A stretch of 64,000 nt of DNA from assembly GCA_023430825.1 (NCBI GenBank), contig JAEYYL010000003.1, positions 3,791 through 67,790 on the forward strand, in the 5' to 3' direction. Shown piece by piece: positions 6,269-62,216 of the stretch (positions within the stretch are counted from its first letter, which is position 1; every line of letters starts with the position of its first letter). The position numbers were made by a program, and so were the translations under genes. Under the pieces are notes generated by a model. It worked only from the letters and a program-made list of their open reading frames with translations, made no database searches and had not been told where the DNA came from. This stretch comes from Verrucomicrobiota bacterium. Lineage in GTDB: Bacteria; Verrucomicrobiota; Verrucomicrobiia; Opitutales; Opitutaceae.

Positions 6269-6730
6269 ATGAAACGCTCTCCCGAAGAACTCGAAAAATT
6301 CATCCATCAGACCCTGCGCTCGCTGCCGGATCGCCGCGCGCCGCGCTCGCTCGAAGGGCGCGTCCTCGCCGCCATTGCCGCGCGGGCGGAGCTGCCGTGG
6401 TGGAAGCAATCCTACGCGCGCTGGCCGCTCGCGATGCGCTGCGCCTTCCTGTTGGTGTCCGGCGCGATCGCGAAAGCCCTGATCATGGCGACGGTTTGGG
6501 TGATGAGCGGCGCCGAGGGCGCGCAGCTCACGCACACGGTGGCGGCCGAATTCGCCTGGGTGAGCCGCTTGAGCGGGATCGTCGCGAGCCTGGGCGATTT
6601 CTGCGCGCTGCTGCTGCGCAGCATCCCGACGGTTTGGCTTTACGGTGGGCTCGCCGGGTTCGCGCTGGTTTACGCCACGCTTTTCGGGCTCGGTGCCACG
6701 GCCTACCGCACGCTTTACGCGAACCGCTGA
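6269..6730 (+). CDS. putative anti-sigma factor / membrane protein
   Basis: Lies directly downstream of the ECF sigma gene. Has TM helices in its second half. Assigned by position only. Confidence 0.5.
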   Translation: MKRSPEELEKFIHQTLRSLPDRRAPRSLEGRVLAAIAARAELPWWKQSYARWPLAMRCAFLLVSGAIAKALIMATVWVMSGAEGAQLTHTVAAEFAWVSRLSGIVASLGDFCALLLRSIPTVWLYGGLAGFALVYATLFGLGATAYRTLYANR

Positions 6731-6769
6731 TTCCCGGCGGACGCACCTGTTTTTAACCGCTTCACTTCG

Positions 6770-42564: not shown

Positions 42565-43632
42565 GTGGTGCTGGCGGGCGCGCCGAAATCCGGGAAATCC
42601 TTCTTTGCCTTCCAACTCGCGATGGCGGTGGCTCAGGGGCGGAATCATCAGGGTGACCGCTGGTTTCTGCTGCCCGACTTTACGCTACCCGAACAGGCCA
42701 AACGGAACGTGCTGTTCTTCTCGCTCGAAATGGGCGCCGGCGTCGTGCGGTCGCGCTTACGGCCCTGGAAAGGTGTGTCGTCTGGGGCCGACGTGAACAT
42801 CGAGACGATGGAGCAGCTGAAGTTCGTGTTCAATGTTGGCGGGCGATCTACACTCGATCTCGGCGACTCCAGAGGGGACGTGTACGGAGCTGTCCGAGAT
42901 CTCATCAAACACGAGAAGCCGCACCTCGTTGTGTTCGACACCTTCGTTCGGGTTCACGGCCTGGATGAGAACGACAACGTGCGGATGGCGGCTCTCATGC
43001 AGAATCTGCTGAATCTGTGCGAAATTCCCGATGAGCAGCGTCCTGGCCGCACCCGCCGAATCGCGCATCTGATCGTTCACCACCTGCGCAAACCGGGCAA
43101 AGAGACTTACTGGAACAGCAGCGTTATCGACGCAGTACGTGGAGCCGGCTCCATCATCGGTGCGGCGGATCTGATCCTCGGGATGGCCGTCGACCGAAAC
43201 GAGCGGCGCAAGCTGGAGTTCTGCTGCCGGCACCTCCCGCAAATGGACGATATCGAACTCGAATCGTGCGAGGTGCCCCCGCGGACCGGCACTGAGCGGC
43301 GATCGGGACGGGACTCGATGCTTCTTTTCTCAAAGGCACCAGAGAAGCCCAAATTTGAACAACCAGTAGCTCGTAAACTTCGTGCGCCGACTCAGCGTGC
43401 CGTCGACGCGGTTAAGCAGATACTCGAAACGACGTTTCAAGGCGCCGAGGTGGGCACCAAGGTCACGGTTCGGGAAGCTCTTGAACTGCTGCCCCCTGAC
43501 GTCGATGTGAACGGCGGGACGCTCTGTGATCACGGCAAGGCGGTGCGTGCGAACGGATGGGTATACCGTGGGAAAAAGGGCAGCAAGGCGCAGGCCCAGT
43601 GTTGGTGGGAGAGAAAATCCTCAGACTCCTAA
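42565..43632 (+). CDS. AAA_25/RepA-like RecA-fold ATPase, apparently 5'-interrupted
   Basis: Walker A GAPKSGKS is only 4 residues after the track start. Walker B LVVFD. The same frame upstream (ATG 42436 with GGAG SD) encodes the expected N-terminus but is broken by TAA at 42520-42522. Confidence 0.7.
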   Translation: MVLAGAPKSGKSFFAFQLAMAVAQGRNHQGDRWFLLPDFTLPEQAKRNVLFFSLEMGAGVVRSRLRPWKGVSSGADVNIETMEQLKFVFNVGGRSTLDLGDSRGDVYGAVRDLIKHEKPHLVVFDTFVRVHGLDENDNVRMAALMQNLLNLCEIPDEQRPGRTRRIAHLIVHHLRKPGKETYWNSSVIDAVRGAGSIIGAADLILGMAVDRNERRKLEFCCRHLPQMDDIELESCEVPPRTGTERRSGRDSMLLFSKAPEKPKFEQPVARKLRAPTQRAVDAVKQILETTFQGAEVGTKVTVREALELLPPDVDVNGGTLCDHGKAVRANGWVYRGKKGSKAQAQCWWERKSSDS

Positions 43633-44646: not shown

Positions 44647-45375
44647 ATGGAAAATTCATCGATTCCGTGGACGGATCACACGTTCAATCCTTGGATCGGG
44701 TGCGCCCGCGTGTCCCCCGGCTGTGAGCATTGTTACGCTGAAACCTTAATGGAAACCCGCTACAAACGGGTGTCTTGGGGGCCGGGCGGAACGCGGGTAA
44801 AGACGTCTCCCGCGAACTGGAAGAAGCCCCGGCAATGGAACGCGAGGGCTGACGCGCTCGGCATTCGGTATCGAGTATTCTGCGCGTCGCTTGCCGACGT
44901 GTTCGAATCCCGTCCGGAACTCGTTCCGTGGCGGGACGAATTGCACCAGCTCATTCGAGATACTCCCAACCTCGATTGGCTCGTGCTCACGAAGCGGCCG
45001 GAGATCGCGGCGGATTATTACCAGCGCAACGGCATTCCTCGAAACGTCTGGGCTGGCGCGACCGTTGAGGATCACGACCGCGCCGAACAGCGCATCCCCG
45101 TGTTGCGGACGATTCCGGCAAGGGTTCGCTTCGTCAGCGCCGAACCCCTCCTCGCTGACCTTGGTAAGCTTGATCTCACCGGGATTGGCTGGGTCATCGT
45201 CGGTGGTGAAAGTGGTCCGGGCTTTCGGACCATGGCCCCCGAATGGGCCCGTCGCATCCGCGATCAATGTGAACGGAAGAACGTTCCGTTCTTCTTCAAA
45301 CAATGGTCGGCGCCTGCCGCGGGCAGCCGGGGTCATGAACTTGATGGCGTGGTTCACCACGCCTTTCCGGTGTAG
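44647..45375 (+). CDS. DUF5131 (phage Gp37/Gp68 family) three-Cys-motif protein
   Basis: N-terminus IPWTDHTFNPWIGCARVSPGCEHCYAE is the family signature. C-terminus ...GGESGPG...FFFKQW. Confidence 0.8.
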   Translation: MENSSIPWTDHTFNPWIGCARVSPGCEHCYAETLMETRYKRVSWGPGGTRVKTSPANWKKPRQWNARADALGIRYRVFCASLADVFESRPELVPWRDELHQLIRDTPNLDWLVLTKRPEIAADYYQRNGIPRNVWAGATVEDHDRAEQRIPVLRTIPARVRFVSAEPLLADLGKLDLTGIGWVIVGGESGPGFRTMAPEWARRIRDQCERKNVPFFFKQWSAPAAGSRGHELDGVVHHAFPV

Positions 45376-48235: not shown

Positions 48236-48669
48236 GGTGATTTTGTTTTAGGTTAGCTCTACTCAAGCTGCCCTAATTCCTCTTCAGTGCGTCTCGCGCC
48301 GAAGTTCAGGGCAGATCGCCGCTGCCGATTCCGTCGTGCCGTTTCCGGCTCTTCAGCTCCGTCAGGGTCGATTCCCTCTCCTTGTATTTCCGGAAGCCCC
48401 CTCCAAGGCCCTCGCAGATCTTTTCTGGTATTTTTGCTGAGGGCCGCATGGCGCTACGCCGTCGCGGTGATTGAACCGGCAAACAGGTTGGGTCGATGCC
48501 CCCTCAGCCGGCGGTCGCCCATCTTGACCCCTGGTCCTCAACGCCGATCACCTCACGCACGCAACCGTCCTGAATGTCACGGCGCAATCACCTTGCCGAT
48601 TGCGTTCGGCCCGCCAAGCACTTCCAGATATTTCTTGACGTTTCAAGAAACATACCGGCATCTAGAGAA

Positions 48670-51267
48670 ATGCTGGCTCACATTCTTTCTCCACGCCCCG
48701 AAGTCACTTCCGGCCGCATTCAAGGTGTCATTGATCCCGACCGTATCACAGATCCTAAGGGGAAGTCCCTAGAGGCGAAACCAACCGAATTTGTGCGCGC
48801 CACCTTCGTGTCCAACGATGTGCGCCGGCTCGTTAAAACTCTCCAGACGCGCCTCCATTCTTCCGAGTCGGAGGTTGGCACCGTTCTATTCGAGGGCCCC
48901 AAAGGGCAGGGTAAAAGCCACCTCATCACCCTCGGCTACCATCTCGTGAAGAACAACGCCGAGCTGGTCGGTTGGCTCACGGAGCAAAAGCTCGAACTCA
49001 CCATCCCGGGCAACGTCGTTGTCCTTCTTCGCAAATTTACCGACTTTCCCTTCGACACCCTCTGGCAGGTCATCGGCGATGCTATCGGAGCGAACTTCAC
49101 CGGCTCGCGCCCGCCGAGCATCGAAGCGTTCCGGGCCGCGCTCGCCGGCCGAAAACTCGTCCTCCTGTTCGACGAACTGGAAAGCGGCATCCGCGCCATC
49201 GGCAGCGACAGCCAGCGACAGGACAACATCAACTTCCTTCAGATGATCTCCGAGGAGTCCATGCGCGCCGACTCCAACGTTGTTCTCATCGCCTCCGTTT
49301 ACGACGGCAACATCGAGCCCGGGCTTACCCTCAAGCGCGTCAAGCCGACCGAGATCAGATTCACCGACAACCGGGATCGGCTTCACATCCTCTTCCACCG
49401 ACTCTTCGAAAAGTCTCCGTTGGCGGCGAACCCCGAAATCGACAACATCGTCAAGAGTCACGCCAACACGTGGCAGCGCTTCGGGGTCCCTGCCAACGCC
49501 GACTATGTCGAGCGTCTGCGCGAGAGTTTCCCATTCTCTCCCGAGCTAATCGACGTCGTCACCCAGCGCATTCCCCAGAGCCGGGGTGGTTTTCAGGGGA
49601 CTCGTGGCGCACTGGCATTTCTCGCCGCCCTCGTCCGTCTGCGCGGCCAGCAGACCAATCTGCTCACGCTTTCTGACGTCGCCATCACTGACGCGGACAT
49701 CCGCACGTGGCTCGCGGACCTTGAGCCTTCGCAGAACCTCATCTCCTGCGCAGATGCGAACCTCCGGGACCTGGCCAAACTCCCTGCTGCCGAGCGCATC
49801 ACGTCGGCCACCTTGATCGCCAGCCTCGCGCCGTCTCGAACACTGGGCATCTCCGAAGATGAACTGGCTCGTCAAGTCCTCGACCCCGCCGGGGATTACA
49901 ACCAGTTCAAACAGACTCTCGATGGCTTCACCAAATTTGCTTCGTTCTTTCACCGACGTGACCAACACGTCTACTTCGACACTCGCGAAAACGCGCACGC
50001 CAAGGTCGAGCTTCGGAGCATCTCGGTTAAAGACAGTGAGGCGTGGGATCGGATCGCGCAGTGGTGGCGCGCTGATGTTTTCGGCGACTCCGATGCCATC
50101 ATCCTTGGCGAGATCGATCTCGCCCGCAATCGGCTCGATGGTCTGCACGCGGATGGCCTTCGGTTCGTGATCTCACCTCGTCGCCTAAATGTTCGTGACC
50201 GGCACGATCTCTATTTCGGGCTGAAGCGCCGCAACACGGTCGTCCTCCTCGAACCCCGCGCAGACAAGGAAAACCTTCGCACCAACCCTGACATCCTCGC
50301 GTGGGCTCGTAAGGCCATCGCTGCTGAGGCTCTTGCAACCGCTACGATCGGTGACGCCGAGAAGGTCCGCGAGTTCTCCAAAATAGCTTCCGACCAGAAG
50401 ACCGCGGTCATCGAGGCGATCAAGAAGGTGAACTATGCCTACGTGCAGGTTCACCGCACAGGAGCAACTCCCGAGCAAGGCGATTACACGCTGGAGCCGG
50501 TCCAGCCTCTCGCGAAGCAAACCGTCCTTACGCACTTAGCGCGTAGTCTCTTCCCCGCTACCTACATTGCCGAACACATGCAGGGCCGATACTCCGAGCT
50601 GCTCGGCCGGAAGGTGGCCGCCGTGGAGGCAGAGTATCGCAATACCCTCAGCTTCCCCGTTCTCGTTTACCCGACCACCTTCATCGAGGCCGTCGACAGC
50701 CTCGTTGTGGACGGCGTCTTCAACCTCGCACATCCTGCCGGGACACAGCACGCCGGGGAAAACGTCATGCTTCGTGAAGCCGAGCTGATGGAGTCCACCT
50801 TTGCCGCGCCGTCGGCGCGCCCCGCCGCAGCTCCGGTGAACAGGCCAGCAGATCCGAGCCCCGTCGGAGGTTTTGGTCAGCCGCCGGCTACCACGACGGG
50901 AAGAGGAGGTGGTGTCTCCGCGGCGGTGGATGTGCTCCCCTTCACCGGCACAGCCCAGACTCTCACCACTGGGTTCTGCGATTCCCGGCAGGCACTTCGT
51001 CAGGAGGTAGCCGCCAAGCTTGATCAAGCCGAAGACCAGATTGTGGTTCGTGTCCGCATCGGAATCACCTTCGATGCCCGCACATCTGACATGTCCACGC
51101 TCCCTTCTTTCCTGCGTGGTTCGCTCACCGGAACGGGATTGTTCAGCGGTGAGGTCACGTTCGAGTTTCCTGGCTCGTTCAACAAGGCCGCTGTGGAAGC
51201 CATGATGGAACGTCTCCCGGATTTCGCGCCCGGCTCAGCCAAAGTGACGCTGACGCTCGCATCCTGA
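48670..51267 (+). CDS. DUF499/BrxC(PglY)-like P-loop ATPase
   Basis: 865 aa from the ATG at 48670. Walker A is FEGPKGQGKSH about 110 aa in. Walker B-like is LVLLFDELE. Long helical C-terminal region. First gene of the operon. Confidence 0.8.
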   Translation: MLAHILSPRPEVTSGRIQGVIDPDRITDPKGKSLEAKPTEFVRATFVSNDVRRLVKTLQTRLHSSESEVGTVLFEGPKGQGKSHLITLGYHLVKNNAELVGWLTEQKLELTIPGNVVVLLRKFTDFPFDTLWQVIGDAIGANFTGSRPPSIEAFRAALAGRKLVLLFDELESGIRAIGSDSQRQDNINFLQMISEESMRADSNVVLIASVYDGNIEPGLTLKRVKPTEIRFTDNRDRLHILFHRLFEKSPLAANPEIDNIVKSHANTWQRFGVPANADYVERLRESFPFSPELIDVVTQRIPQSRGGFQGTRGALAFLAALVRLRGQQTNLLTLSDVAITDADIRTWLADLEPSQNLISCADANLRDLAKLPAAERITSATLIASLAPSRTLGISEDELARQVLDPAGDYNQFKQTLDGFTKFASFFHRRDQHVYFDTRENAHAKVELRSISVKDSEAWDRIAQWWRADVFGDSDAIILGEIDLARNRLDGLHADGLRFVISPRRLNVRDRHDLYFGLKRRNTVVLLEPRADKENLRTNPDILAWARKAIAAEALATATIGDAEKVREFSKIASDQKTAVIEAIKKVNYAYVQVHRTGATPEQGDYTLEPVQPLAKQTVLTHLARSLFPATYIAEHMQGRYSELLGRKVAAVEAEYRNTLSFPVLVYPTTFIEAVDSLVVDGVFNLAHPAGTQHAGENVMLREAELMESTFAAPSARPAAAPVNRPADPSPVGGFGQPPATTTGRGGGVSAAVDVLPFTGTAQTLTTGFCDSRQALRQEVAAKLDQAEDQIVVRVRIGITFDARTSDMSTLPSFLRGSLTGTGLFSGEVTFEFPGSFNKAAVEAMMERLPDFAPGSAKVTLTLAS

Positions 51268-51275
51268 TCTCCGCC

Positions 51276-52283
51276 ATGTCCGCCCTCGTCGATTTTCCTC
51301 CTGGATTGCTTCTTGTCGGCGGCTCACGTGTGCCCGGTATCGCCGAGTGGCTGATGCAATCCGTGTGGTCCCCAGAGCGCTTCGCCTCGCTCCCTCGCGA
51401 GGAATACCTGCGCCTCGGGGAGGACTCGGTTTGCCGAGCCGAGGAGGCGATCTCCACAGGCGCTTCCCGTGTTTGGGATGAGCTGGTTGCAGCTTCTGCT
51501 CACGCTCTGACCCCTCGCGGGTATCTCGGCCTGGACTCGCCGCCCTCTTCAGCCCAGCCCGTCAGCCGCGCGGTCATCGTGTTTGATGGCCTGTCTCTCC
51601 GTGAGCTTCCTCTCCTCCTTTCGCTGGCGGCAAAAACGGGCTTTCGGGTGGACGACGCACGGGCTATGGCGACCTGCCTGCCGACTGAAACGATCGACTT
51701 CGTTTCCCAGCGCGTTCTCGGTGCGGATGCGGCCTACGGGACGGGACCGAGTCAGCTGCCAGGCCACGGTGCGCTCACGTCGCGTGGCGTTTTTGCCGCA
51801 TACCTCGATAGTCTAAACCCGCGAGTGTCGCTCCCGAGCGGCAAGTCGCTGCTTCTGTGGTCCACCTATCCGGATCGACTCTTCAAGGACGACGAAGCGC
51901 GATTCGATACCCAGCTCTTCCCCCAGTTTTGCGAGCATGTCTCCACCCTGTGGAAATACACGGTGCAGGCCGTGCCAGCAGGCGTGCCCATCGTTCTCAC
52001 CAGTGACCACGGTTATATTTTTTTCGGTGGCACAGCGGAGAGTTCACGCGAATCCACCGCGACCGAACAACTCCATCAACAACGCCACCAAGTCTTCGAA
52101 GACCAAGCGCCGTATCCGGCGCCACACCCTGATCTCCAGCGACTGCCCGAGCGACGCCTCGCCCTGCTGCGTGGCCGCCTCAAGACCCGCCCCAGGGGCG
52201 GCAGTGGCCGCAAGCTTTACCAGCACGGCGGCCTTTCCCTCATGGAGTCCCTCGTCCCGTGGGTTCTCCTCAACCGCAACTAA
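51276..52283 (+). CDS. PglZ-domain (alkaline-phosphatase superfamily) protein, short form
   Basis: AVIVFDGLSLRELP, CLPTETIDF, VLTSDHGYIF and YQHGGLSLMESLVPW signatures. Only 335 aa. Confidence 0.8.
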   Translation: MSALVDFPPGLLLVGGSRVPGIAEWLMQSVWSPERFASLPREEYLRLGEDSVCRAEEAISTGASRVWDELVAASAHALTPRGYLGLDSPPSSAQPVSRAVIVFDGLSLRELPLLLSLAAKTGFRVDDARAMATCLPTETIDFVSQRVLGADAAYGTGPSQLPGHGALTSRGVFAAYLDSLNPRVSLPSGKSLLLWSTYPDRLFKDDEARFDTQLFPQFCEHVSTLWKYTVQAVPAGVPIVLTSDHGYIFFGGTAESSRESTATEQLHQQRHQVFEDQAPYPAPHPDLQRLPERRLALLRGRLKTRPRGGSGRKLYQHGGLSLMESLVPWVLLNRN

Positions 52284-52295
52284 TCTCTCTCCACC

Positions 52296-52529
52296 ATGAG
52301 CAAAATCAAAGTCGGCACCCAGATCGAAGAGGAGATCTACCAGCAATTGAAGTTGGTCGCTGCCCGCGAACGCCGCCCCGTGGGCGAACTCGTCCAGGAT
52401 GCCGTCACCTTTTATCTCCGTCGCCAGCGTAAATCCGGCCTCGCTCGGCTACTCGAACGTGGCCCGACCTTCGCCGTGAGCGAAGCCGATCACCGCGAAA
52501 TCATGGAAGCGGATTTTTACGACCAGTGA
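52296..52529 (+). CDS. CopG/RHH-type antitoxin-like protein
   Basis: 77 aa. KVGTQIEEEIYQQLKLVAARERRPVGELVQDAVTFYL fits an RHH fold. Lies directly upstream of the PIN gene. Confidence 0.65.
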   Translation: MSKIKVGTQIEEEIYQQLKLVAARERRPVGELVQDAVTFYLRRQRKSGLARLLERGPTFAVSEADHREIMEADFYDQ

Positions 52530-52545
52530 GCGCAACCCGGACGAC

Positions 52546-53049
52546 ATGACTCTCGACGAAATCCGCAACCGCACCCGCGTCCTCATCGACGCCAACGTGC
52601 TCATCTATGGCATCCGCCGCTCTTCGCTCCAATGTCGGGCGCTCCTTGCACGCTGCGATTCCGGCGCCTTGGAGGGCATCATCACAACGACCATCCTCGC
52701 TGAGTTCAGCCACCGCCGGATGGTCGAGGAAGCGAAGTTCAAGGGTCTGGTCGGCTCTAATCCTGCCCGCGCTTTATCTGAGAATCGTAGTCTGCTGCGG
52801 TCGCTTTCCGCCTACGCAGACGAGGTGCGCGATCTTCTCGGCGGAGGTCTTCTGGTCGAGCAGGTAATGCCCGAAGACTTTCACCTAGCACTTGAGTTTC
52901 AGCAGAAGTTCGCGCTGCTCACGAACGACTCCCTCAACCTCGCGGTCGCCCGTCGGCTAGGCGTCAGCGAACTTGCGACCGCCGACAAGGGTTTCGATTC
53001 CGCCCAGGGATTCATCGTCTACAAGCCGAACGATATCGCCCTTCTATGA
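52546..53049 (+). CDS. PIN-domain (VapC-like) ribonuclease
   Basis: VLIDANVLIY (Asp1), AEF (Glu), LLTNDSLNLA (Asp3), ATADKGF (Asp4). Confidence 0.75.
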   Translation: MTLDEIRNRTRVLIDANVLIYGIRRSSLQCRALLARCDSGALEGIITTTILAEFSHRRMVEEAKFKGLVGSNPARALSENRSLLRSLSAYADEVRDLLGGGLLVEQVMPEDFHLALEFQQKFALLTNDSLNLAVARRLGVSELATADKGFDSAQGFIVYKPNDIALL

Positions 53050-54047
53050 ACGTGATCGCCACCACCTCAGAAGCCTTGCTGCAAGAGACCGCCTCGCTGG
53101 ATCTCAAGCGTAGCTTCAATCCGGCCAGCAATGGGGAGTGGTGCGAACTCTTGAAGGACCTAGTGGCTATGGCTAACTCGGGCGGGGGGCGTATCATCAT
53201 CGGCCTCAGTGACGACGGCACACCATCGGGCATCTGTTCGCGGAATTGCCGGTCGATCGACCCTGCGGTTTTTGTAGACAAGATTCACTCGTATACGGGG
53301 GTGCATTTCGCCGGAGTTTCGACACGCTCTGAATCGCAGGCTGGAGTCGAAGTGACTGTTTTTGTCGTCGAAGACGCGCCTGTCCCTCTCGTTTTCGACA
53401 AGGCCGGCAACTACCAGCCGACCGAGGGCAAGCAGCGCAACGCGTTCAATCAAGGCACACTCTACGTTCGGCACGGCGCCAAGAGTGAGCCTGCTACCTC
53501 TGCCGACATTCGGGAGATCCTCGATCGCCATCTGAAGCGCGCACGCGAGGCACTCCTCGTAAACCTTCGCCAAGTAGTTGAAGCCCCGGCCGGGTCGGTT
53601 GTGTCAATCGCTCCTCGGGCCGTCTCAACGAACGACTTTTCCGCTCACCCGGTCCGGCTCGTTGAAGATCCCGCCGCTGCACCGGCCGCAATGCTCGATC
53701 CCAACATCACGCATCCGCACCGGCAGAAGGAAGTGATCGCAAAGGTCAACGAGCGGCTAGCCGGCAAAACGCATGTAACCTCCGCGGATGTTCTGGCGAT
53801 TCGCCGTATCCACCGACTGGAGGCTAACCGTTCTCTCTGCTATCAGCCGAGGTTCGGCTCCTGCCAGTATAGCGACCTTTTCGTCGAGTGGATCATCAGC
53901 CACATTCAAGCGGACCCGAATTTCCTTCGGGATGTGAAGCATCGCTTCCACGAACTGACCGTGGCGCATAATGCCGCCACCCGTCGGCGTCGCCGCTCCA
54001 CTCGGATGAGCACCTACGGTCAGCCGAGTTCCGCTTTTTCGTCATGA
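53046..54047 (+). CDS. AlbA_2/Schlafen-like (divergent AAA) domain protein
   Basis: ETASLDLKRSF...LLKDLVAMANSGGGRIIIGLSDDG...GTLYVRHGAKSEPA pattern. ATGA overlaps at both ends. Confidence 0.65.
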   Translation: MNVIATTSEALLQETASLDLKRSFNPASNGEWCELLKDLVAMANSGGGRIIIGLSDDGTPSGICSRNCRSIDPAVFVDKIHSYTGVHFAGVSTRSESQAGVEVTVFVVEDAPVPLVFDKAGNYQPTEGKQRNAFNQGTLYVRHGAKSEPATSADIREILDRHLKRAREALLVNLRQVVEAPAGSVVSIAPRAVSTNDFSAHPVRLVEDPAAAPAAMLDPNITHPHRQKEVIAKVNERLAGKTHVTSADVLAIRRIHRLEANRSLCYQPRFGSCQYSDLFVEWIISHIQADPNFLRDVKHRFHELTVAHNAATRRRRRSTRMSTYGQPSSAFSS

Positions 54048-54601
54048 ACCAGTCCTATCCAGCTCGCACTCTGCTCGGAGCCTTGTCCGGCCTCCAAATC
54101 GCCCCTGTCCGTCGCAAAATCTTCGTCAGCTACCACCACGCGCATGACCAAGGGTATTACAACGAACTGTCCCGTGTGCTGCACGATCAGATGGACGTGG
54201 TCTTCGACAACTCGCTCGATCGCCGTATCGACAGCGACAACACGGAATACGTGATCCAACGCATCCGCGATAATTTCATCTCTGGCACATCCTGCACGAT
54301 CGTCCTTTGCGGACCGGAGACCTACCAGCGAAAATACGTGGATTGGGAAATCAAGGCCACGCTGGATAAGGGCCACGGTTTGATCGGCCTGCACCTGCCC
54401 ACAGCGGTTCGCGGGGATCAGGGCGGCATCCTTGTCGCGAGCCGTCTGTATCAAAACATCCAATCCGGTTACGCCCTCTGGAAATCGTGGAACGACCTTG
54501 CGGCAAACCCGCGGCTCATGGCCACGTGGATTGAAGATGCGGTTGCTCGTGACCAGAGCAAGATCGTCAACCCACACGAGATCAAATCCCGCAACGGGTA
54601 A
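54044..54601 (+). CDS. ThsB-like TIR domain protein (DUF1863/MTH538-type)
   Basis: KIFVSYHHAHDQGYY..., ISGTSCTIVLCGPETYQRKYVDWEIKATL... matches the TIR-like ThsB pattern, including the conserved Glu in WEI. Confidence 0.75.
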   Translation: MNQSYPARTLLGALSGLQIAPVRRKIFVSYHHAHDQGYYNELSRVLHDQMDVVFDNSLDRRIDSDNTEYVIQRIRDNFISGTSCTIVLCGPETYQRKYVDWEIKATLDKGHGLIGLHLPTAVRGDQGGILVASRLYQNIQSGYALWKSWNDLAANPRLMATWIEDAVARDQSKIVNPHEIKSRNG

Positions 54602-54608
54602 CTTTACC

Positions 54609-55169
54609 ATGGCCACGATCAAAGAAGGGAATTTCTCCATCAATCTCGGCCTGGTAAAGCTCGATGGGCGTCTCACCGACGATGACCGCCAATGCGCTTG
54701 GGAACTCTACGCTGAGATCATCACGCGGGTCGCTGTCGTCGGGAAGTGGAGCGATAAAGAGGCCACCAGTTTCGAAGGCGAGATCTACGCTGAAAGCTTC
54801 ACCTCGCTGCACCGGTTCTTCCAAGAAGCGCGGGGCATCATGCGAAAATTCCCCGTGGGGCGCATCGACAAGCCGACCAAGGACCACTTGGGAGTCATGA
54901 TCCAGCGGATTCTAACCGATGCGCTCCGGCCTTTTTTGGAGAAGTGGCAAGGCAACTACAGGTCGTGGTGGGAACTTCAGATGAATTCGCCGCGTAATCC
55001 GTTCGATGTGCAGGCCGAATTCAAGGACTTGAAAGGACTTCTGGAAGACTGGTCAGCCATCCGCCGCATCATGCGCCGCGCCGCTCACGAAATCTGCGAG
55101 GCCTACCAGCTCGAACCCGTCATCCAGCCACCATCTCAACCGGCGGAGCCCGCCCGCAGAGTCATTTAA
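54609..55169 (+). CDS. hypothetical helical protein (186 aa)
   Basis: ATG lies 7 nt after the TIR gene stop. The gene ends 5 nt before the methyltransferase. No family recognised. Confidence 0.55.
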   Translation: MATIKEGNFSINLGLVKLDGRLTDDDRQCAWELYAEIITRVAVVGKWSDKEATSFEGEIYAESFTSLHRFFQEARGIMRKFPVGRIDKPTKDHLGVMIQRILTDALRPFLEKWQGNYRSWWELQMNSPRNPFDVQAEFKDLKGLLEDWSAIRRIMRRAAHEICEAYQLEPVIQPPSQPAEPARRVI

Positions 55170-55174
55170 TCGCT

Positions 55175-58100
55175 ATGTCCAAACGCGCCATCGAAGAGTC
55201 TTTCCCTATTGTTGAGATCAACCGCCTGGTTGTTCCCGAGCGCAATGGGTTCAAGCCCATCTATCAGATGCACAAATCCTTCGCGCCCCGCGCTTCCTGC
55301 GTTTTCCGGGCTATTCTCTTGGGCGCGCTCAAGCCTGCCGGCACCAACATTATTGAAGAGTTCTACAAGGACCATACTAACGACCCCGACACGAAAGACA
55401 AGGTAGTCCTAGATACCTTCATGGGTGGCGGCACGACCATCGTCGAAGCGGTCCGCATGGGTATTCGTCCTATTGGTATCGAGCTTAACCCTGTTCCGTG
55501 GTTTGTAGTAAAAATGGCCCTTGCCCCGGCAGATGTGGAGGCCTTCGACGCTAGCGTAAAACGACTTGAAGAACGTCCGGTCGCGTGGTCTGGCAAATCG
55601 CTCACTGACACGCTTGCCGAACTTTATGAGACCGAGGCCCCAGTATATCTGGACAACGAGACAAACCAGGCTGTGAAGCCAAAAGCCCACGCAATTCACA
55701 CGTATTGGGTAAAATCGGCCATCTGCACGAGCCCGACATGCCGCAAGCAGGTTCCGCTCTTCAAAAACTACATCGTCGCGAACAAGACACCGACTATCCG
55801 TTACCACGCTGACTGCACCTGTCCACGTTGTCAGAAAACATTCGACTGGGAGTTGGAGCCTGCCGCTCTTGTTTCAGATCCCGCGCAGATGGTGCATGCC
55901 AGCGCCTACTCGGCCGGCGTAAGTCGTAGCACTGTCCGATGGACGTATGCCCACCCCGAAGGAGGTATCTACGTGGCGCAGGGGGACGCAAAAGGCGGGC
56001 AATCCACTGTCCGTCACGGGCGCGTTCCAACTGCGCACGTTTGTTGCCCCCATTGCTACGAAACGGTTAAACCGCGGCTTTCGACCACCAAGCCAAAGCG
56101 GAAGAAAATTCCCCTGAGTGTATTGCACTGTCCGAACACTGATGAAGTCTTTCAGTGGCGCGGAGAGCTGCCGCCAGGCATTACGGTCTCCTCGCCCCTT
56201 GGGGGCAATTTTGAACCACATCGCGGAAATGTTCCTGAAAACGGTGAGTTTCTTTGTCCGCACTGCGGCCAAAGAGACGAAAACATACGTTCAGTCCGTG
56301 CGCTACCCGAGAATGAACGGTTCCCCCTGAGTGCTTATGCGGCCCAATCTTACTGGGCAGCTGGTGATCCGAGAGAAGATGACGACGATAATGTAGAGGG
56401 TGATTTGTTCGTGACCATCAGCCCAGATAGGGTCGGCGCAGTATGCAGCAAGACAGACAATTTAGTTTGGAAGAATAAGGGTAAGTTCTTTCACTCCATA
56501 TCGCCCAAGCAATTAGCGAGTTATCAGTCAATTAAAGCGACTTGGGCAAGGAACCAAGACAGTCTTCCACATCCACGATCAGCCATCCCGCCTGGACAGG
56601 AAACAAAGCGCCTACACGAACACCATTATCGTGGTTTTAAGGACATGTTTTTGGATCGGCAGCTGTTGGCTTTGAGCACTCTGCTACACGCAATCGCCCA
56701 AGAGGAAAACGAGGCATGCCGCAACTTATTGCTCTTGGTTTTCTCGGGAACCGTAGAGCGCAATAATCTTTTCTGCCGGTATTTCAACGACCGAAACACA
56801 ATACAGGGGAATTTCGACCGTCACGATTACGCGCCAAAAATTGATCCGGCTGAGAATTGCGTTTGGGGGCCAAGTGAAGTCCGCGGCAGTTTCCACAATA
56901 TGCTCGGACGCGTAAAGGAGGGCCTGGAATTTAGAAGAAAGGTTTATGACCGCGACATTAACCGCCTTGGCGCAAAAGATAATTTGATTCTTTCCGGTGA
57001 ATCGATCGAGCCGGGGCGAGAAACTCTCCATAATGGCGACTCCCGCGAAGAGATTCGGAAGCTAGAGGACCTAGCTGATGCAGTCATTACAGATCCACCA
57101 TACGCTGGCAACGTAAACTACAGCGAGCTATACGATTTCTTCTATGTCTGGCTTCGCCTAGTCCTAAAGAACACTTACCACTCTTTTCAGCCAGAATATA
57201 CGCCCAAGACTACGGAGATTGTGGAAAACAAATCACGGGGCTTATCCAATGACGATTTTCGCGTCGGCCTCAAGACGGTGTTCGAGCGAGCCCACGACAA
57301 ATTAAAGGAAGACGGCGTGATGGCATTCACCTACCATCACTCAGGCAATCAACAATGGGTGGATTTGTGTGACGCCGTGTGTCTGGCAGGCTTTGTTATC
57401 GAGGCCGTCTATCCAGTTCATGCCGAAAAAGAATCGTCCCTAAACCTTCAAAACAACGAAGGCATCTCTTACGACCTAATCCACGTTTGCCGCAAGCGCC
57501 CCGCCGATCTTGGTCGGCGCAAGCGCACGTGGCAGGGCATACGGCAGGACATTCGCAAGAGAGCAGCTGAAGAAATCAAAGTTATCGAGAGCGGTCGTTA
57601 CGGTCGTGAACCTCTTGCCCCGTCAGATGTGCGCATGATCCTGATCGGGAAGTGCCTGGAGCTTTATTCGAAGCACTACGGCATCGTTATCGACGGTGAG
57701 GCTAATGTTCTACCCATGAAACGAGCGCTCGAAGACATTGACGAGATGGTGCAACAGCTCATCACCAAAGAAAATCCGCTTCCTAATGAGTTGGAGAACG
57801 TGGATGTAGTTTCCCGCGTATGGCTACGGGCTTTGTGCAACATTCGCGAGGTGTCGATTGATTCTGTCCGTAAGCTCACCCAGGGCATTTTTGAGCTTAG
57901 CGATCTGACCGACTACGATCCGCCTCTCGTAAGAAAAGGCCGTGTGAAAGGTGGCCGCACTTACACGGTTCTATCCCCTACCGAGCGACTTGATGCCCTT
58001 CACAAGAAGTTGAGCAATATAGACAACACCCTTAGCCAAATGGAGTTCATTCAAATTGAAGACAACTCCCTGTCCGCCATGGGACCTAATCTGATCGACG

Positions 58101-58303
58101 TGCTTCATTACTTACTTGCGCATGCAGAAACCGGTGAGCGACTCGATCTCATAGTTGAAAGATTTCGTGCGCACCGGCCACAAGTTCGGGCCGCGCTAGA
58201 GTTCATTAAAATCAAAGACCCCAATCGGTGGGCAAGATCCTGCGACCGATTGCTGCCTTTCTACACCGACATGCTGAGCAGCATGTTGGGCGCTCGAATC
58301 TAA
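55175..58303 (+). CDS. DUF1156-type Zn-ribbon DNA methyltransferase (PglXI-like, N6/N4 class)
   Basis: N-terminus AIEESFPIVEINRL...YQMHKSFAPR. Cys clusters CTSPTC...CPRC and CPHC...CPHCG. Catalytic VITDPPYAGNVNY. 1042 aa. Confidence 0.85.
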   Translation: MSKRAIEESFPIVEINRLVVPERNGFKPIYQMHKSFAPRASCVFRAILLGALKPAGTNIIEEFYKDHTNDPDTKDKVVLDTFMGGGTTIVEAVRMGIRPIGIELNPVPWFVVKMALAPADVEAFDASVKRLEERPVAWSGKSLTDTLAELYETEAPVYLDNETNQAVKPKAHAIHTYWVKSAICTSPTCRKQVPLFKNYIVANKTPTIRYHADCTCPRCQKTFDWELEPAALVSDPAQMVHASAYSAGVSRSTVRWTYAHPEGGIYVAQGDAKGGQSTVRHGRVPTAHVCCPHCYETVKPRLSTTKPKRKKIPLSVLHCPNTDEVFQWRGELPPGITVSSPLGGNFEPHRGNVPENGEFLCPHCGQRDENIRSVRALPENERFPLSAYAAQSYWAAGDPREDDDDNVEGDLFVTISPDRVGAVCSKTDNLVWKNKGKFFHSISPKQLASYQSIKATWARNQDSLPHPRSAIPPGQETKRLHEHHYRGFKDMFLDRQLLALSTLLHAIAQEENEACRNLLLLVFSGTVERNNLFCRYFNDRNTIQGNFDRHDYAPKIDPAENCVWGPSEVRGSFHNMLGRVKEGLEFRRKVYDRDINRLGAKDNLILSGESIEPGRETLHNGDSREEIRKLEDLADAVITDPPYAGNVNYSELYDFFYVWLRLVLKNTYHSFQPEYTPKTTEIVENKSRGLSNDDFRVGLKTVFERAHDKLKEDGVMAFTYHHSGNQQWVDLCDAVCLAGFVIEAVYPVHAEKESSLNLQNNEGISYDLIHVCRKRPADLGRRKRTWQGIRQDIRKRAAEEIKVIESGRYGREPLAPSDVRMILIGKCLELYSKHYGIVIDGEANVLPMKRALEDIDEMVQQLITKENPLPNELENVDVVSRVWLRALCNIREVSIDSVRKLTQGIFELSDLTDYDPPLVRKGRVKGGRTYTVLSPTERLDALHKKLSNIDNTLSQMEFIQIEDNSLSAMGPNLIDVLHYLLAHAETGERLDLIVERFRAHRPQVRAALEFIKIKDPNRWARSCDRLLPFYTDMLSSMLGARI

Positions 58304-58317
58304 CCGCTCCACTCACC

Positions 58318-58923
58318 ATGTCCGGCCGCAACCGCTACCTTGATGTCAGGTCACAATACGCAAATCTCCGCGAGTCCTTCGACAAACGCGCGGGCTTGGA
58401 GATTGCCACAGCTTCCCGCAAACCGTCTGAGCCGTGTATTTTCCTGTCCCATCGGAGCACCGACAAGGCCGCAGTGCGCAAGATCGGTGAGTATATCATG
58501 AGCAAAGGCATCGACGTTTATCTCGACGCCGATGACCCCAACCTCCAACGCGCCGATCTCGCGAACGATCACAAGGCCATCACCGCAGCCATAGAGCTGG
58601 GAATCGCCAATTCTACGGACCTTCTGGCCTACTTGACCGCGAACACCAAGGAATCGCCTTGGGTCCCCTACGAAATCGGCTTCGCCAAGCGTAACGGCAA
58701 TTACCTAGCGGCCATGAAAGCCAAGGACCTGACACGGCTTCCGAGTTACCTGGAGATCGTTCGTCAGATCAACGGCATTGCGGAGTTGAACACCTATCTC
58801 CGCGATGTGCTCAGCAGGCAGCAGGTCATCTACGGCAGCGCAAACTACACCCGCAACGCCTTGGTCGAGCAGCTGAAGCAGGCCTACCAAGGTATCGAAT
58901 TGAGCGCTTACCTAGACTACTAA
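58318..58923 (+). CDS. TIR-domain protein
   Basis: CIFLSHRSTDKAAVRKIGEYIMSKGIDVYLDADD and SPWVPYEIGFA (candidate catalytic Glu). 201 aa from the ATG at 58318. Confidence 0.7.
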   Translation: MSGRNRYLDVRSQYANLRESFDKRAGLEIATASRKPSEPCIFLSHRSTDKAAVRKIGEYIMSKGIDVYLDADDPNLQRADLANDHKAITAAIELGIANSTDLLAYLTANTKESPWVPYEIGFAKRNGNYLAAMKAKDLTRLPSYLEIVRQINGIAELNTYLRDVLSRQQVIYGSANYTRNALVEQLKQAYQGIELSAYLDY

Positions 58924-58932
58924 CTTTCCATC

Positions 58933-59388
58933 ATGTCTGGCTACCTCGTCCTCCCCCGCACCGCGCTCGATCTCCATGGCGGCACCATGCCCGCCGCGCC
59001 GGAGCAGATCGGCTTCCTCGATTTTCTCAGGGAGATCGAGCAGGACCCGTTCCCTTTCGCGCCACGTGCCCGGCTCTGCATCACTGGACTGGACGAGTTG
59101 CTTATTTCGCAGGACTGCACCCACCAGCGCATCACGCCTGCGGCTTCCGCCCTCCTGCTCGATTACCGTCGTCGTCTCAAGCGCGCCGCATCTGAGGTCA
59201 ACCACCTCGCAGATATCCAGGTCCCTGTCGCATATCCGCTCCGCCTCGGCGGTGAAAAGGACCTCGGCGCCCACCATACGAAACACGACTTCGTGCCACT
59301 CTGGCAACTCTTTGGAAAGAATCCGAGTTCGCGAGAGGTCATCACCGGCAAGGTGTTTGGCTACCATTTCGCGGAGACCCTTTCGTGA
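58933..59388 (+). CDS. hypothetical protein (151 aa), translationally coupled to the helicase
   Basis: Its stop overlaps the helicase GTG start (GTGA). No motif recognised. Its position matches where small accessory proteins sit in DUF1156/DUF499 loci. Confidence 0.55.
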   Translation: MSGYLVLPRTALDLHGGTMPAAPEQIGFLDFLREIEQDPFPFAPRARLCITGLDELLISQDCTHQRITPAASALLLDYRRRLKRAASEVNHLADIQVPVAYPLRLGGEKDLGAHHTKHDFVPLWQLFGKNPSSREVITGKVFGYHFAETLS

Positions 59389-62216
59389 GCACAGCCGGAC
59401 CTGAAACAACCGATCTACGGGTCGGCGACCGTGTCCGCATTGCGGGACGTTACGCACACGGCGTCGGCGAAGTCCTCCGCGTGCAACAGACCGGCGGTCT
59501 CGTCATCGCGGATGTCGTATTTGACGGGCAAGGAGGCCGGCGACTTGAGACGCTTCCCGTCAGCCGGCTCGAAAAAGCGTCGTCGCCTTGGGATCGCCTG
59601 CGCGCCGGTCACTACGACGATCCGCGTGACTTTTTGCTTCGTCAGCTCGCGTGGCAGTTCGCTCTGGGCAACTCCGGCGGGGAGCTTTCGAACGCCAAGA
59701 CGGCGTTGCTGCCACACCAGATTCTTCTCACCCACGATCTGGTGAAGATGCAGCGCCGTCGCGTGCTCGTCGCCGACGATGTCGGCTTGGGCAAGACGAT
59801 CGAAACAGGCATGGCCATTCGCGAACTCATCACCCGAGGAGAGGCGCGACGTGTGCTCATCATCACGCCAGCCGGTCTGGTGAAGAACTGGCAGCGCGAG
59901 CTGCGCGATTGCTTCCGCATCGAGTTCGAGATTCTCGGCACGGATTTCCATGATTACGCACCGACTTCCTGGGAAAATCATCACCGCGTTATCGCGTCGA
60001 TCGATACTCTCAAGCGCCCGCAGCGCACCGAGCGCCTGCTCGCCGCGCCCAAGTGGGACCTCATCGTTTTCGACGAAGCCCACCATCTTACACGTCTTCG
60101 CTACGGCTCGAAGGTTCAGGCCACGCTCAATTACAAGCTGGCTGACGCGCTGCGTGGACACACCCGCGACCTCCTCTTCCTTTCAGCCACGCCACATCAA
60201 GGTGACGCCTATCAGTTCTGGTCCCTGATTCACCTGCTGGACGATCAGCTCTTCGACTCACCCGAGGCGATGGACGCGCATCGTGGCCTTCTCAACCGCG
60301 TCATCATCCGCCGCACCAAACGGGAGGTCACCGATGGCGACGGCAAACCACTCTTCGTTCGCCGCCAAGTCACGACCGAGCGCTTCGAGCCCGCCCTCAG
60401 AGAACAGCGCTTCTACGAGAAGCTCACGAACTACTTGAAAGACGGCTACAATGCCGCGGGGGTTGGACCCAACGGACAGACCTCGCGCCCGTCCCGCGAC
60501 CAACGCGCCATCGGCTTCGTGATGGTCGCATTCCAGAAGATGATGTCGTCGAGTCCTCGCGCCATCCGTCAGGCGCTTCGCCGGCGTCTCCTAGTGTTGC
60601 TTGTTCGCCAGCAGATTGAGGTCGAGATGCGCCGGAAGTCATCCCCGTCGCCCGAGCTGTCCGACCGCTACCTGCGGTTGCAGGACGAAATGCGCGGCCT
60701 CGCGAAGGAGATCTACGCGCTCGCGCCGTCTCCCTCCACTGACGCGCAGGCCGACACCTGCATCGCGCAAGTCAGGGAGCGCACGCTCAAGAAGCTGATC
60801 GAGTCCGAGGACGACACCAACTGGTCCTTGGAATCCGACGAGGAGGGCGACGAAGGCATCTACGGTGATGCGGAAATTCCTGACGAAACCGCCAAGGTCC
60901 GGGAGTTGCTCCGGATCGTGCCTGAGGGGGTGGACCGCAAGTTCGAGCGGCTCGAAATGATCATTGGCAAGCTTCGTGCCGAAAACTCGGGGGAGCGATT
61001 CGTGATCTTCACTCAATACCGGGAGACAATGGAGTTTCTCAAGGCCGAGCTGGCTCGCATCGTCGGCCCCGAGCGTGTCGTCTCAATCCAAGGCGGGCCG
61101 CTCGAAGACAAAATCGCAGCCGCGGAGAAATTCTGGGCGGAAGACGGCGCACGCATCCTCATCTCAACCTCAGCGGGCGGTGAAGGTATCAACCTCCAGA
61201 TCGCACGGGTGCTGTTCAATTACGACCTGCCATGGAATCCGATGGCGGTCGAGCAGCGCATCGGCCGCATTCACCGCTTTGGACAGAAGGAGGTCTCGCA
61301 AGTCTACAACCTCGTGGCCAAAGACACGGTCGAGGAGAATATCTATACGCTGCTGTGGGAGAAGCTGGACCAGATCGCGAAAGCCATCGGCAAGACCGAT
61401 CCAGAAACTGGCGAGCCTTTAGAAGATTTCCGCAGCGACATCCTCGGCTTCCTCGGTTCATCACCCAACTACCAACAGCTTTTCAAGCAAGCGCTGATCG
61501 ACCGCGACTACAACCGCACCAGCAGAGAACTCGATCGCATGATGCAGACCGCCCAAAAAGCACGGTCCGCTTTGCAGGACCTGTCTCAGGACCTTACCAG
61601 TTTCAATCTTGAGCAATACCGCCGGATCTCAGGCCAGTTCCACTTGAAGCAACTCGGGGAATGGTGCCGGGAAGCGGTGGTTCGTCTCGGTGGAAGCGCA
61701 GTCCCCGCGGGCGAGTTTTGGCAGATTATCACGCCGGAGCCGCTCAAGAACTTTCCCAACGTAGGCGCCCGGTATGACAACGTCACGTTCGACCGTGCCC
61801 TCGCGACGCGCAAGAAGGGGTCCGAACTCTTTGGGATCGGCCACCCTTTCGTGGACGCTTTGATTCTACACTTACAAAATCCGCCTTTTGGTGCCGAAGT
61901 CGCCTGCCTCGCCGGTGCAGTGGATAACGCAAGGGTGGAAGCCCGTTATCGAGTAACATGGGATCGAGCTGAGAAGGGTGCGTTCAGCGGCGTCGTCATT
62001 GTTAGCTTGAACGGCACGGCCAGGGTGGAGGAATTGAGCCGCGACCCTGGTCGGTTCAATTCTCCGGCTCCGGACACTTGCTCCACGATCGAACCCGATG
62101 CAGAGGCCCGAGCTGAAGAGACGCTTAACCTCTGGATCTCTTCCCGCCGCACTGAATTCGCCGATGGAACCATTCCACGATGGGAACTACTCGGTGTATC
62201 CGTGCACGGGTATTAG
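59385..62216 (+). CDS. SNF2/RAD54-family helicase (BrxHII-like)
   Basis: Motif I DDVGLGKT, motif II DEAHHL, motif III SATP, GGEGINLQ, and motif VI QRIGRIHRFGQ. 943 aa. Confidence 0.9.
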   Translation: MSTAGPETTDLRVGDRVRIAGRYAHGVGEVLRVQQTGGLVIADVVFDGQGGRRLETLPVSRLEKASSPWDRLRAGHYDDPRDFLLRQLAWQFALGNSGGELSNAKTALLPHQILLTHDLVKMQRRRVLVADDVGLGKTIETGMAIRELITRGEARRVLIITPAGLVKNWQRELRDCFRIEFEILGTDFHDYAPTSWENHHRVIASIDTLKRPQRTERLLAAPKWDLIVFDEAHHLTRLRYGSKVQATLNYKLADALRGHTRDLLFLSATPHQGDAYQFWSLIHLLDDQLFDSPEAMDAHRGLLNRVIIRRTKREVTDGDGKPLFVRRQVTTERFEPALREQRFYEKLTNYLKDGYNAAGVGPNGQTSRPSRDQRAIGFVMVAFQKMMSSSPRAIRQALRRRLLVLLVRQQIEVEMRRKSSPSPELSDRYLRLQDEMRGLAKEIYALAPSPSTDAQADTCIAQVRERTLKKLIESEDDTNWSLESDEEGDEGIYGDAEIPDETAKVRELLRIVPEGVDRKFERLEMIIGKLRAENSGERFVIFTQYRETMEFLKAELARIVGPERVVSIQGGPLEDKIAAAEKFWAEDGARILISTSAGGEGINLQIARVLFNYDLPWNPMAVEQRIGRIHRFGQKEVSQVYNLVAKDTVEENIYTLLWEKLDQIAKAIGKTDPETGEPLEDFRSDILGFLGSSPNYQQLFKQALIDRDYNRTSRELDRMMQTAQKARSALQDLSQDLTSFNLEQYRRISGQFHLKQLGEWCREAVVRLGGSAVPAGEFWQIITPEPLKNFPNVGARYDNVTFDRALATRKKGSELFGIGHPFVDALILHLQNPPFGAEVACLAGAVDNARVEARYRVTWDRAEKGAFSGVVIVSLNGTARVEELSRDPGRFNSPAPDTCSTIEPDAEARAEETLNLWISSRRTEFADGTIPRWELLGVSVHGY

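Follow-up and report, generated by a model that had tools for sequence, protein, structure and literature searches.

This locus raises the question of what kind of system is encoded by the five genes at positions 52296-55169 of the 64,000-nucleotide (nt) stretch of Verrucomicrobiota DNA that was analysed (hereafter the window; all coordinates without a locus name are positions in it). The genes encode, in order, a ribbon-helix-helix (RHH) protein, a PIN protein, an AlbA_2/Schlafen-type protein, a ThsB-like TIR protein and a helical protein of 186 amino acids (aa), which we call X186. They lie between the PglZ gene and the methylase gene of an 11-gene operon related to BREX. The initial annotation had treated them as one cassette. 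We consider it probable that they represent three independent modules, namely an RHH-PIN pair, a Schlafen RNase and a type VI-like Thoeris module. The five genes are:

52296-52529, + strand, RHH gene, 77 aa
52546-53049, + strand, PIN gene, 167 aa
53046-54047, + strand, AlbA_2 gene, 333 aa
54044-54601, + strand, TIR gene (TIR185, ThsB-1), 185 aa
54609-55169, + strand, X186 gene, 186 aa

Re-reading of the sequence reproduced exactly the five open reading frames (ORFs) and the junctions first described. An ATGA at 53046-53049 is common to the PIN stop and the AlbA_2 start, and another at 54044-54047 to the AlbA_2 stop and the TIR185 start; 7 nt separate the TIR185 stop TAA (54599-54601) from the X186 ATG at 54609, and 5 nt separate the X186 stop TAA (55167-55169) from the methylase ATG at 55175. 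Identical gene calls for the locus are present in two independent public assemblies (L125 and L126). The domain identities RHH, PIN, AlbA_2 and ThsB-like TIR were likewise borne out by Pfam, that of RHH by sub-threshold matches only.

The distribution of these genes was determined in 116 related loci, comprising 36 genome loci with an X186 homologue and 80 metagenome loci with a homologue of the short PglZ; all 11 proteins of the window operon were mapped on both sets by tblastn. The results showed that the five genes are not conserved together across the 116 loci, which is the outcome that the initial annotation itself had named as speaking against a single cassette. Seven loci that keep RHH-PIN-TIR-X186 lack the AlbA gene (L001, L003, L043, L047, L079, L084 and L090). 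The gap between the PIN and methylase genes holds TIR and X186 genes in L001, L003, L043, L079 and L084, and also in L047, L069 and L090, where the contig breaks off within the slot. It holds the AlbA gene alone, with no TIR or X186 gene, in L045, L050 and L082, and apparently in L077, where the contig ends inside the AlbA gene. In other loci the gap contains TIR-X186-AlbA (L058, the reverse of the window order AlbA-TIR-X186), a DUF3800 gene (L046), an ORF6N/PDC-S05 gene (L065) or a recurrent pair of uncharacterised genes (about 154 and 525 aa, eight loci), and it is empty in L048/85, L052/53, L063, L080 and L098/99. Most of the 36 genome loci with X186 lack BREX-type genes as well as PIN and AlbA within 10 kb, and more than 20 loci combine TIR and X186 in the absence of PIN and AlbA.

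A second gap, which follows the methylase gene, carries a second TIR gene in three loci alone, namely the window, L001 and L046. Since slot contents differ among close relatives (L046, L045 and L048; 74-89% PglZ identity), turnover must be fast, and we concluded that the PIN-to-methylase and post-methylase gaps are cargo slots with fast turnover between close relatives.

The 333-aa product of the AlbA_2 gene matched SLFN_AlbA_2 (PF04326, E=6e-12) and, at its C-terminus, the REase-like family EC042_2821 (PF18740, E=2e-6). It has 368 homologues, mostly of 305-335 aa and with the same architecture. The Schlafen catalytic motif is Ex4(E/D)xK (Taboada et al., bioRxiv 10.1101/2025.07.24.666596); it appears here as E14-x4-D19-x-K21, in which, across 82 homologues, E14 and K21 do not vary and D19 is kept in at least 90%. 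Foldseek matched the AlphaFold2 (AF2) model of the protein (pLDDT 88) to the SAMD9 tRNase and to the nuclease domains of SLFN5/11/12/13/14 with probabilities of 0.9-1.0, and found no SLOG, Macro or CARF fold in it. A check for a ligand pocket of these three kinds, which had been proposed for this protein, thus returned a Schlafen nuclease fold instead. Prokaryotic Schlafens are single-gene anti-phage tRNases (bioRxiv 10.1101/2025.07.24.666596), and homologues of the 333-aa protein were found alone beside transposases and a group II intron in unrelated contexts. Sequence and model together point to an autonomous prokaryotic Schlafen RNase, carried as lineage-specific cargo, and not to a ligand sensor.

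These data bear directly on the idea that the five genes are a single new, integrated TIR system, with the AlbA_2/Schlafen protein or PIN receiving the signal and acting as effector. The close spacing with its ATGA overlaps, the lack of a ThsA-type gene in the operon and the frequent use of RNases as effectors would suit such a system, and L058 likewise unites RHH-PIN, TIR, X186 and AlbA. The gene order in L058 differs, however, and AlbA and TIR-X186 each occur without the other in the slot, AlbA homologues stand alone beside transposases, and many TIR-X186 pairs have neither PIN nor AlbA near them; the Schlafen nuclease fold of the AlbA model offers none of the pockets looked for. The co-occurrence data have already largely refuted the idea, and we regard it as very improbable.

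ThsB proteins sense infection and make a cyclic ADP-ribose (cADPR) isomer from NAD+. TIR185 is a ThsB_TIR protein (PF08937, E=2.5e-24) with an invariant catalytic Glu (E102, in DWEIKAT), to which the Glu of the YEI motif in B. cereus ThsB corresponds in the alignment; its nearest solved structures are those of ThsB, 6LHY and 9B7D. Within the 11 operon genes and most of the flanking ORFs at 39-64 kb, no ThsA of the SIR2-SLOG or Macro type was found, as the initial annotation had said. Its coordinates had left out the TIR gene in the second variable slot:

58318-58923, + strand, second TIR gene (TIR2, ThsB-2), matching TIR_2 at 8e-10 and ThsB_TIR at 7e-7

X186 itself matched no Pfam family. It has 454 homologues of 172-190 aa with about 55% identity, and conservation is very strong in the blocks DDRQCAWELY, IMRKFPVG, HLG and RPFLEKW, with many invariant Arg, His and Trp residues, among them R40, R75, H93, R107 and R152. 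The X186 profile (alignment A2), searched against 1.8 billion representatives, gave 711 clusters at 50% identity in many phyla. The AF2 model (pLDDT 84.6) consists of an N-terminal hairpin and four long helices, for which Foldseek found nothing below E=0.4 in PDB and BFVD, and the profile had no match among PDB sequences. HEPN, weakly similar at rank 45, was set aside, since X186 has no Rx4-6H motif and the Arg varies.

Using jackhmmer seeded with eight TIR proteins, we found a TIR ORF within 3 kb of X186 in 29 of the 36 genome loci, usually 4-13 nt upstream and on the same strand; among the remaining loci, one has a frameshifted TIR gene and two are cut by a contig edge. At least two TIR genes (two or three) are present in 10 of the 36. 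A constant X186 accompanied by TIR genes of varying number and type is the pattern of Thoeris, in which one effector serves several sensors.

In a preprint of December 2025, type VI Thoeris was described as a ThsB TIR protein with ThsG (DUF6650), using 2'cADPR as signal, with defence validated in E. coli and B. subtilis (Yirmiya et al., bioRxiv 10.64898/2025.12.03.692087). According to the same work, ThsG occurs with or without membrane helices and is predicted to form a hexamer with basic pockets, and added 2'cADPR arrests the growth of cells carrying the system (bioRxiv 10.64898/2025.12.03.692087). The suggestion that the locus holds a candidate new TIR-based module has thereby been overtaken. 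We typed the two TIR proteins of the window by comparison with eight TIR domains from the preprint's Table S1, a small sample of that table. The best match of TIR185 was a validated Gammaproteobacteria type VI TIR (9e-22), with another validated type VI TIR at 9e-14, and the best match of TIR2 was a validated Bacillus type VI TIR (48% identity, 2e-38). The two thus correspond to both TIR clusters of the validated type VI systems. The catalytic Glu of TIR2 is present in VPYEIGF. Homologues of TIR2 stand beside X186 homologues in L002, L017, L025, L027 and L034, and TIR2 probably belongs to the same Thoeris module as TIR185 and X186.

The E. coli type VI system was located in a P2-like prophage (L041, on the A14 chromosome), where the TIR matches the validated ACN001 TIR of Table S1. 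The sole non-phage gene adjoining this TIR gene, at 1770-2501 of L041, encodes a 243-aa protein with membrane helices that is annotated "hypothetical protein", and its stop overlaps the TIR start. Another match to the type VI TIR, on an E. coli plasmid (L037), is a truncated copy without effector, and L041 was used instead.

Distant relatives of X186 recovered with the A2 profile have N-terminal membrane helices, and the E values of those listed are about 1e-12 or below. A hidden Markov model (HMM) was built from these distant relatives and scored against 4243 ORFs. X186 family members obtained 120-153 bits, the E. coli 243-aa gene 52-54 bits (E=3e-18 against three candidate effectors), and its equivalents on plasmids of L. 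plantarum and Priestia 46 and 34.5 bits, respectively; true decoys did not exceed 8 bits. TIR genes reached up to 19.7 bits, and their matches of 12-20 bits arise because the TIR-X chimera P0233 is in the alignment. P0233 (162 aa), the only TIR-X186 fusion, looks like a deletion chimera and was not used as Rosetta-stone evidence. A direct hhalign comparison of A2 with the E. coli effector aligned the same motif block at E=1.3e-3. In addition, a plasmid of Aureispira sp. CCB-E (NZ_CP133672; L127, 1815-6976) carries four TIR genes of different kinds, one near each type VI kind, followed by a membrane-anchored gene of the X186 family that is annotated only as hypothetical; the distant-relative HMM gives it 193 bits and the A2 HMM 40 bits. 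A nucleoside 2-deoxyribosyltransferase-like gene is also present in L127.

On these sequence relationships, TIR185 and X186, probably together with TIR2, are assigned to a type VI-like Thoeris module with a putative soluble ThsG-like effector. The original idea that the signal receiver lies elsewhere in the cassette therefore survives for the helical X186, which the evidence favours, and fails for AlbA_2 and PIN. None of the cited papers describes the arrangement seen here, in which a BREX-related operon harbours a Thoeris module in fast-turnover cargo slots and splits it.

Several points weigh against the assignment. The 243-aa gene of L041 was deduced to be the validated effector from its adjacency to the TIR gene and its membrane helices, and the direct hhalign match to it is weak (probability 19%), so that the strong link is a transitive one. 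With hmmscan, even when E values as high as 10 were admitted, DUF6650 (PF20355) was matched neither by X186 nor by 71 relatives, nor by the E. coli effector. Since the last of these is labelled "DUF6650 and TM" in the preprint and yet escapes PF20355, this test says little about membership, and the link to ThsG is drawn because of homology to the E. coli effector gene and not because of the Pfam model. X186 has no membrane helices, and how membrane-less ThsG is toxic is left open by the preprint (bioRxiv 10.64898/2025.12.03.692087). The typing of the TIR proteins covered the eight Table S1 sequences and not the full table. Finally, SLOG or Nmad2 genes accompany X186 at some loci, which leaves room for another receiver beside it or in its place.

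The last point leads to another explanation of the TIR-X186 pair, in which X186 would be a phage sensor, or would restrain or activate the TIR protein, and the TIR protein itself would be the effector through NAD+ depletion, the two genes forming an abortive-infection pair. In its favour, X186 is a small soluble helical protein in which neither an enzymatic nor a pore domain can be recognised and whose fold has no match; the SLOG LD_cluster2 and Nmad2 proteins of some loci are extra candidate receivers; and many bacterial TIR proteins are NADase effectors. On the other hand, X186 is homologous to a validated type VI effector gene, and cells with that system are arrested by external 2'cADPR. 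Many X186 relatives have the N-terminal membrane helices typical of effectors, the constancy of X186 beside variable TIR genes speaks for one effector with several sensors, and the extreme conservation of Arg, His and Trp suits a ligand pocket. We therefore think this explanation unlikely and retain X186 as the probable ThsG-like effector.

The X186 family also shows a variety of forms. Among P0133, P0134, P0136, P0218, P0231 and P0269 there are fusions to a REC-like N-terminal domain and membrane-anchored proteins with two to four tandem copies of the X186 domain; the REC-like N-termini of P0133, P0134 and P0136 gave weak Response_reg matches only and were left uninterpreted. Arrangements of the family in L005, L007, L019, L026, L028, L029, L035 and L036 include TIR-Nmad2-X186. 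X186 occurs with SLOG (LD_cluster2) in five loci, three of which also have a TIR protein of 413-556 aa.

The remaining module of the three is the RHH-PIN pair. PIN proteins are RNases restrained by RHH partners. The PIN protein of the window matched PF01850 (E=7e-8), and its acidic residues D15, E53, D128 and D147 are largely conserved (alignment A7). The RHH protein gave sub-threshold matches alone (best E=8.5e-4) to several RHH families over residues 3-47, and a strand-helix-helix pattern is legible in its sequence. In related loci the RHH gene is always directly upstream of PIN and often overlaps it. The pair thus has the composition of VapBC, an RHH gene upstream of a PIN gene with four acidic residues, as far as a sub-threshold RHH can show. 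It does not behave as an autonomous mobile addiction module within the operon clade, to which this comparison was confined: in the clade delimited by a PglZ identity of at least 50%, essentially all loci have RHH-PIN immediately behind PglZ. The pair is missing from many loci of the clade with 36-42% PglZ identity, in which PglZ abuts the methylase (for example L097, L104, L110 and L114). Because of its fixed synteny in one clade we regard the pair as a fixed accessory and not a hitch-hiking addiction module, and this fits the earlier suggestion that the RHH protein may not be a classical antitoxin.

The genes that surround the three modules make up the core of the operon:

48670-51267, + strand, DUF499/HmaC-like AAA+ ATPase, first gene of the operon (865-aa call in L125)
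51276-52283, + strand, stand-alone short PglZ (alkaline-phosphatase-like), 335 aa, with weak C-terminal PglZ matches (PADLOC, NCBIfam)
55175-58303, + strand, DUF1156/HmaB/PglXI-like N6-adenine DNA methyltransferase (PF01555)
58933-59388, + strand, conserved 151-aa core protein, found between methylase and helicase in most related loci
59385-62216, + strand, SNF2 helicase (HmaA/BrxHII/DrmD-like), last gene of the operon (PF00176, PF00271)

The maximal ORF of the ATPase begins at 48574, and gene callers choose 48670. The ATPase matched PADLOC HmaC at 2e-12 and DUF499 at 9.5e-9 (Pfam DUF499, E=1.3e-3), and it is kept at the same position in about 70 related loci. Against NCBIfam DUF499_antiphage it obtained 1e-12 and 46.8 bits, far under the cutoff of 1200. 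The methylase matched PADLOC HmaB at 6.6e-32 and PglXI at 3.7e-20, and NCBIfam DUF1156_antiphage at 1e-25 with 89.7 bits, under the cutoff of 1000. Given ATPase and methylase scores so far below curated cutoffs, the core of the window is a distant relative of the curated systems. In PglZ the metal-site motifs DGLSLRE, TSDHGY and HGG.S..E are invariant (alignment A4). The helicase matched HmaA at 2e-104 and BrxH at 2e-101 (PADLOC), and no nuclease domain was found in it by Pfam and PADLOC domain scans. The 151-aa protein had no match in Pfam, NCBIfam or PDB sequences; by analogy with the published operon description it may be a candidate iSTAND-like component. That description gives Type-3 BR as a DUF499 ATPase, a methylase, a BrxHII-like helicase without nuclease, a stand-alone PglZ and usually an iSTAND protein (NAR 2026, PMC12839542). 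The core appears to be a DUF499-centred (Hma-like) BREX-related system of this "Type-3 BR" layout. It is not canonical BREX, being DUF499-centred and having a short stand-alone PglZ.

Several further observations were made in the related loci. The recurrent gene pair of the PIN-to-methylase slot lies at 11724-12188 and 12185-13756 of L054 and is also present in L055, L056, L068, L071, L073, L075 and L091; its products range over 154-169 and 523-588 aa. No Pfam or PADLOC match was obtained for the pair, and none among PDB sequences for the protein of about 525 aa; we regard the pair as a candidate uncharacterised defence pair. L046, with 89% PglZ identity, has its DUF3800 gene at 2287-3168 and a second TIR gene at 6451-6972 (91% identity) but neither TIR185 nor X186; its TIR is apparently an orphan ThsB, and the locus shows recent cargo replacement. 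Type VI-like Thoeris genes also occur just downstream of related helicases, a third position of association: TIR2-like, TIR185-like or X186-like genes are found at 20467-20728 of L058 (minus strand), 10731-11285 of L079 (minus strand) and 8912-10504 of L017. In L059 (7397-11932) and L060 (8960-13495) the helicase follows PIN by about 1.2 kb, with no methylase match between them. A search for repeats flanking the cargo gave short chance-level matches only.

The initial annotation had also held that the cassette must be co-expressed with the core, there being no room for a promoter of its own. The largest intergenic gap among the 11 genes at 48670-62216 is 16 nt, so that tight packing is a trait of the whole array and not peculiar to the five genes. 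A scan for sigma-70 promoters and terminators gave no signal above shuffled controls and was uninformative. From the spacing it is plausible that all genes are on one transcript, but "must" is too strong: because promoters can sit inside upstream genes and the scan was uninformative, co-expression with the core stays at the level of the plausible.

Such co-expression is part of a further explanation, in which the cargo would be a back-up layer functionally tied to the BREX-related core, sharing its transcript and firing when a phage disables the methylation-based core. It agrees with gaps of at most 16 nt throughout the 11 genes and with predicted terminators that are not above chance, with the recurrence of type VI-like Thoeris in three positions (the PIN-methylase gap, the post-methylase gap and downstream of the helicase in L017, L058 and L079), and with the parallel between TIR/X186 identity and core identity among the closest relatives (L043, L001 and L047). 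PIN and Schlafen proteins embedded in BREX/BR loci have moreover been catalogued already, and are read there as back-up effectors (PMC12839542). Against it, slot contents differ between the very close relatives L046, L045 and L048, every cargo type is also found by itself elsewhere, and the recurrence is not a set of independent events because the loci are phylogenetically related. Coupling of this kind appears doubtful to us, but it is compatible with three independent modules and can hold alongside them. A more elaborate version seems rather improbable: both gaps would be a dedicated cargo site, RHH-PIN would control or process the shared transcript, a soluble ThsG would act via the PIN RNase or the PglZ nuclease, and Thoeris and the methylation core would form one two-layer system.

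As for the wider setting, the G+C content of the window changes at about 39 kb, from about 0.66 before this point to about 0.58 after it, and the operon therefore sits in an island. Upstream of the operon are genes for an AAA_25 (RepA-like) ATPase at 42565-43632 and a DUF5131 phage-type protein at 44647-45375. The fall in G+C and these two genes suggest that the defence operon is carried on an integrated mobile element. The ORFs of the window outside 48.6-62.2 kb had no counterpart in any related locus mapped.

Taken as three modules, the locus would work as follows. TIR185 would sense infection and convert NAD+ to a cADPR isomer (validated type VI systems use 2'cADPR); an X186 oligomer would bind this signal and arrest growth, and TIR2 would most likely be a second sensor feeding the same X186 effector. 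This signal chemistry and effector action we infer from type VI Thoeris, whereas the order of the genes, their domains and motifs, their homologies and their co-occurrence were established directly. In the Schlafen protein the C-terminal domain would serve as sensor and the N-terminal Ex4DxK nuclease would cut tRNA or rRNA once activated, a mechanism transferred from the Schlafen family. The RHH-PIN pair would be a VapBC-like pair turned fixed accessory, acting as an RNase back-up or a regulator.

What appeared to be a new TIR system can thus be replaced by a concrete assignment, with X186 as the predicted effector-type (ThsG-like) partner in a Thoeris class of late 2025. The X186/ThsG-like family is much larger and taxonomically wider than reported, with soluble, membrane-anchored, repeated and fused forms, and the Pfam model misses it. 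Its compact soluble members provide material for studying how membrane-less ThsG effectors halt growth. The fast-turnover slot of the BREX-related operon can be mined for new defence genes, such as the pair of about 154 and 525 aa, and the locus is a test bed for the functional coupling of embedded modules to BREX-type cores.

Each part of the locus belongs to a known kind: a divergent soluble ThsG clade, an EC042_2821-type prokaryotic Schlafen (pSlfn) and a Type-3 BR variant with fixed RHH-PIN. With Type-3 BR (PMC12839542) the core shares the nuclease-free BrxHII-like SNF2 helicase and the stand-alone PglZ, next to an ATPase and a methylase that are distantly DUF499-like and DUF1156/PglXI-like, as well as an extra small conserved gene (151 aa), possibly iSTAND. 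It differs in that the window clade keeps RHH-PIN throughout, whereas Type-3 BR neighbourhoods are said to be without conserved stand-alone nucleases; TIR/Thoeris cargo is nowhere mentioned and a fast-turnover PIN-to-methylase slot is not described in PMC12839542, and the window ATPase and methylase fall far under the cutoffs of the curated HMMs.

Compared with type I/II Thoeris, the window has in common a ThsB-type TIR as presumed sensor and signal synthase and more than one ThsB per locus, whereas its operon has no SIR2, SLOG or Macro protein and the partner is a ThsG-like helical protein. The likeness to type VI Thoeris goes further: a ThsB-type TIR with catalytic Glu stands beside a small helical effector that resembles no known fold, X186 and the E. 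coli type VI effector gene fall in one superfamily, and both have forms with and without membrane helices and multi-TIR loci. The X186 clade differs in being divergent, soluble and outside the phyla named in the preprint (the clade occurs in phyla such as Verrucomicrobiota, Desulfobacterota, Armatimonadota, Planctomycetota and Nitrospinota) and in having no match to the Pfam DUF6650 model; the window module, in turn, lies inside another defence operon, where the methylase gene parts TIR2 from the effector.

The 333-aa protein resembles the pSlfn proteins of Taboada et al. in its N-terminal AlbA_2/Schlafen fold with the Ex4(E/D)xK motif, in the union of a nuclease and a variable C-terminal domain in a single gene, and in its defence contexts; its C-terminus is helical and EC042_2821 REase-like, and not histidine-kinase, HTH, Ig-like or DUF262 as in the common or tested classes. 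With VapBC type II toxin-antitoxin systems, lastly, the RHH-PIN pair shares a small RHH gene directly upstream of a gene for a PIN RNase with acidic catalytic residues and, in relatives, frequent overlap of the two; unlike them, it is fixed inside one defence operon clade, and the operon's more distant clade lacks it.

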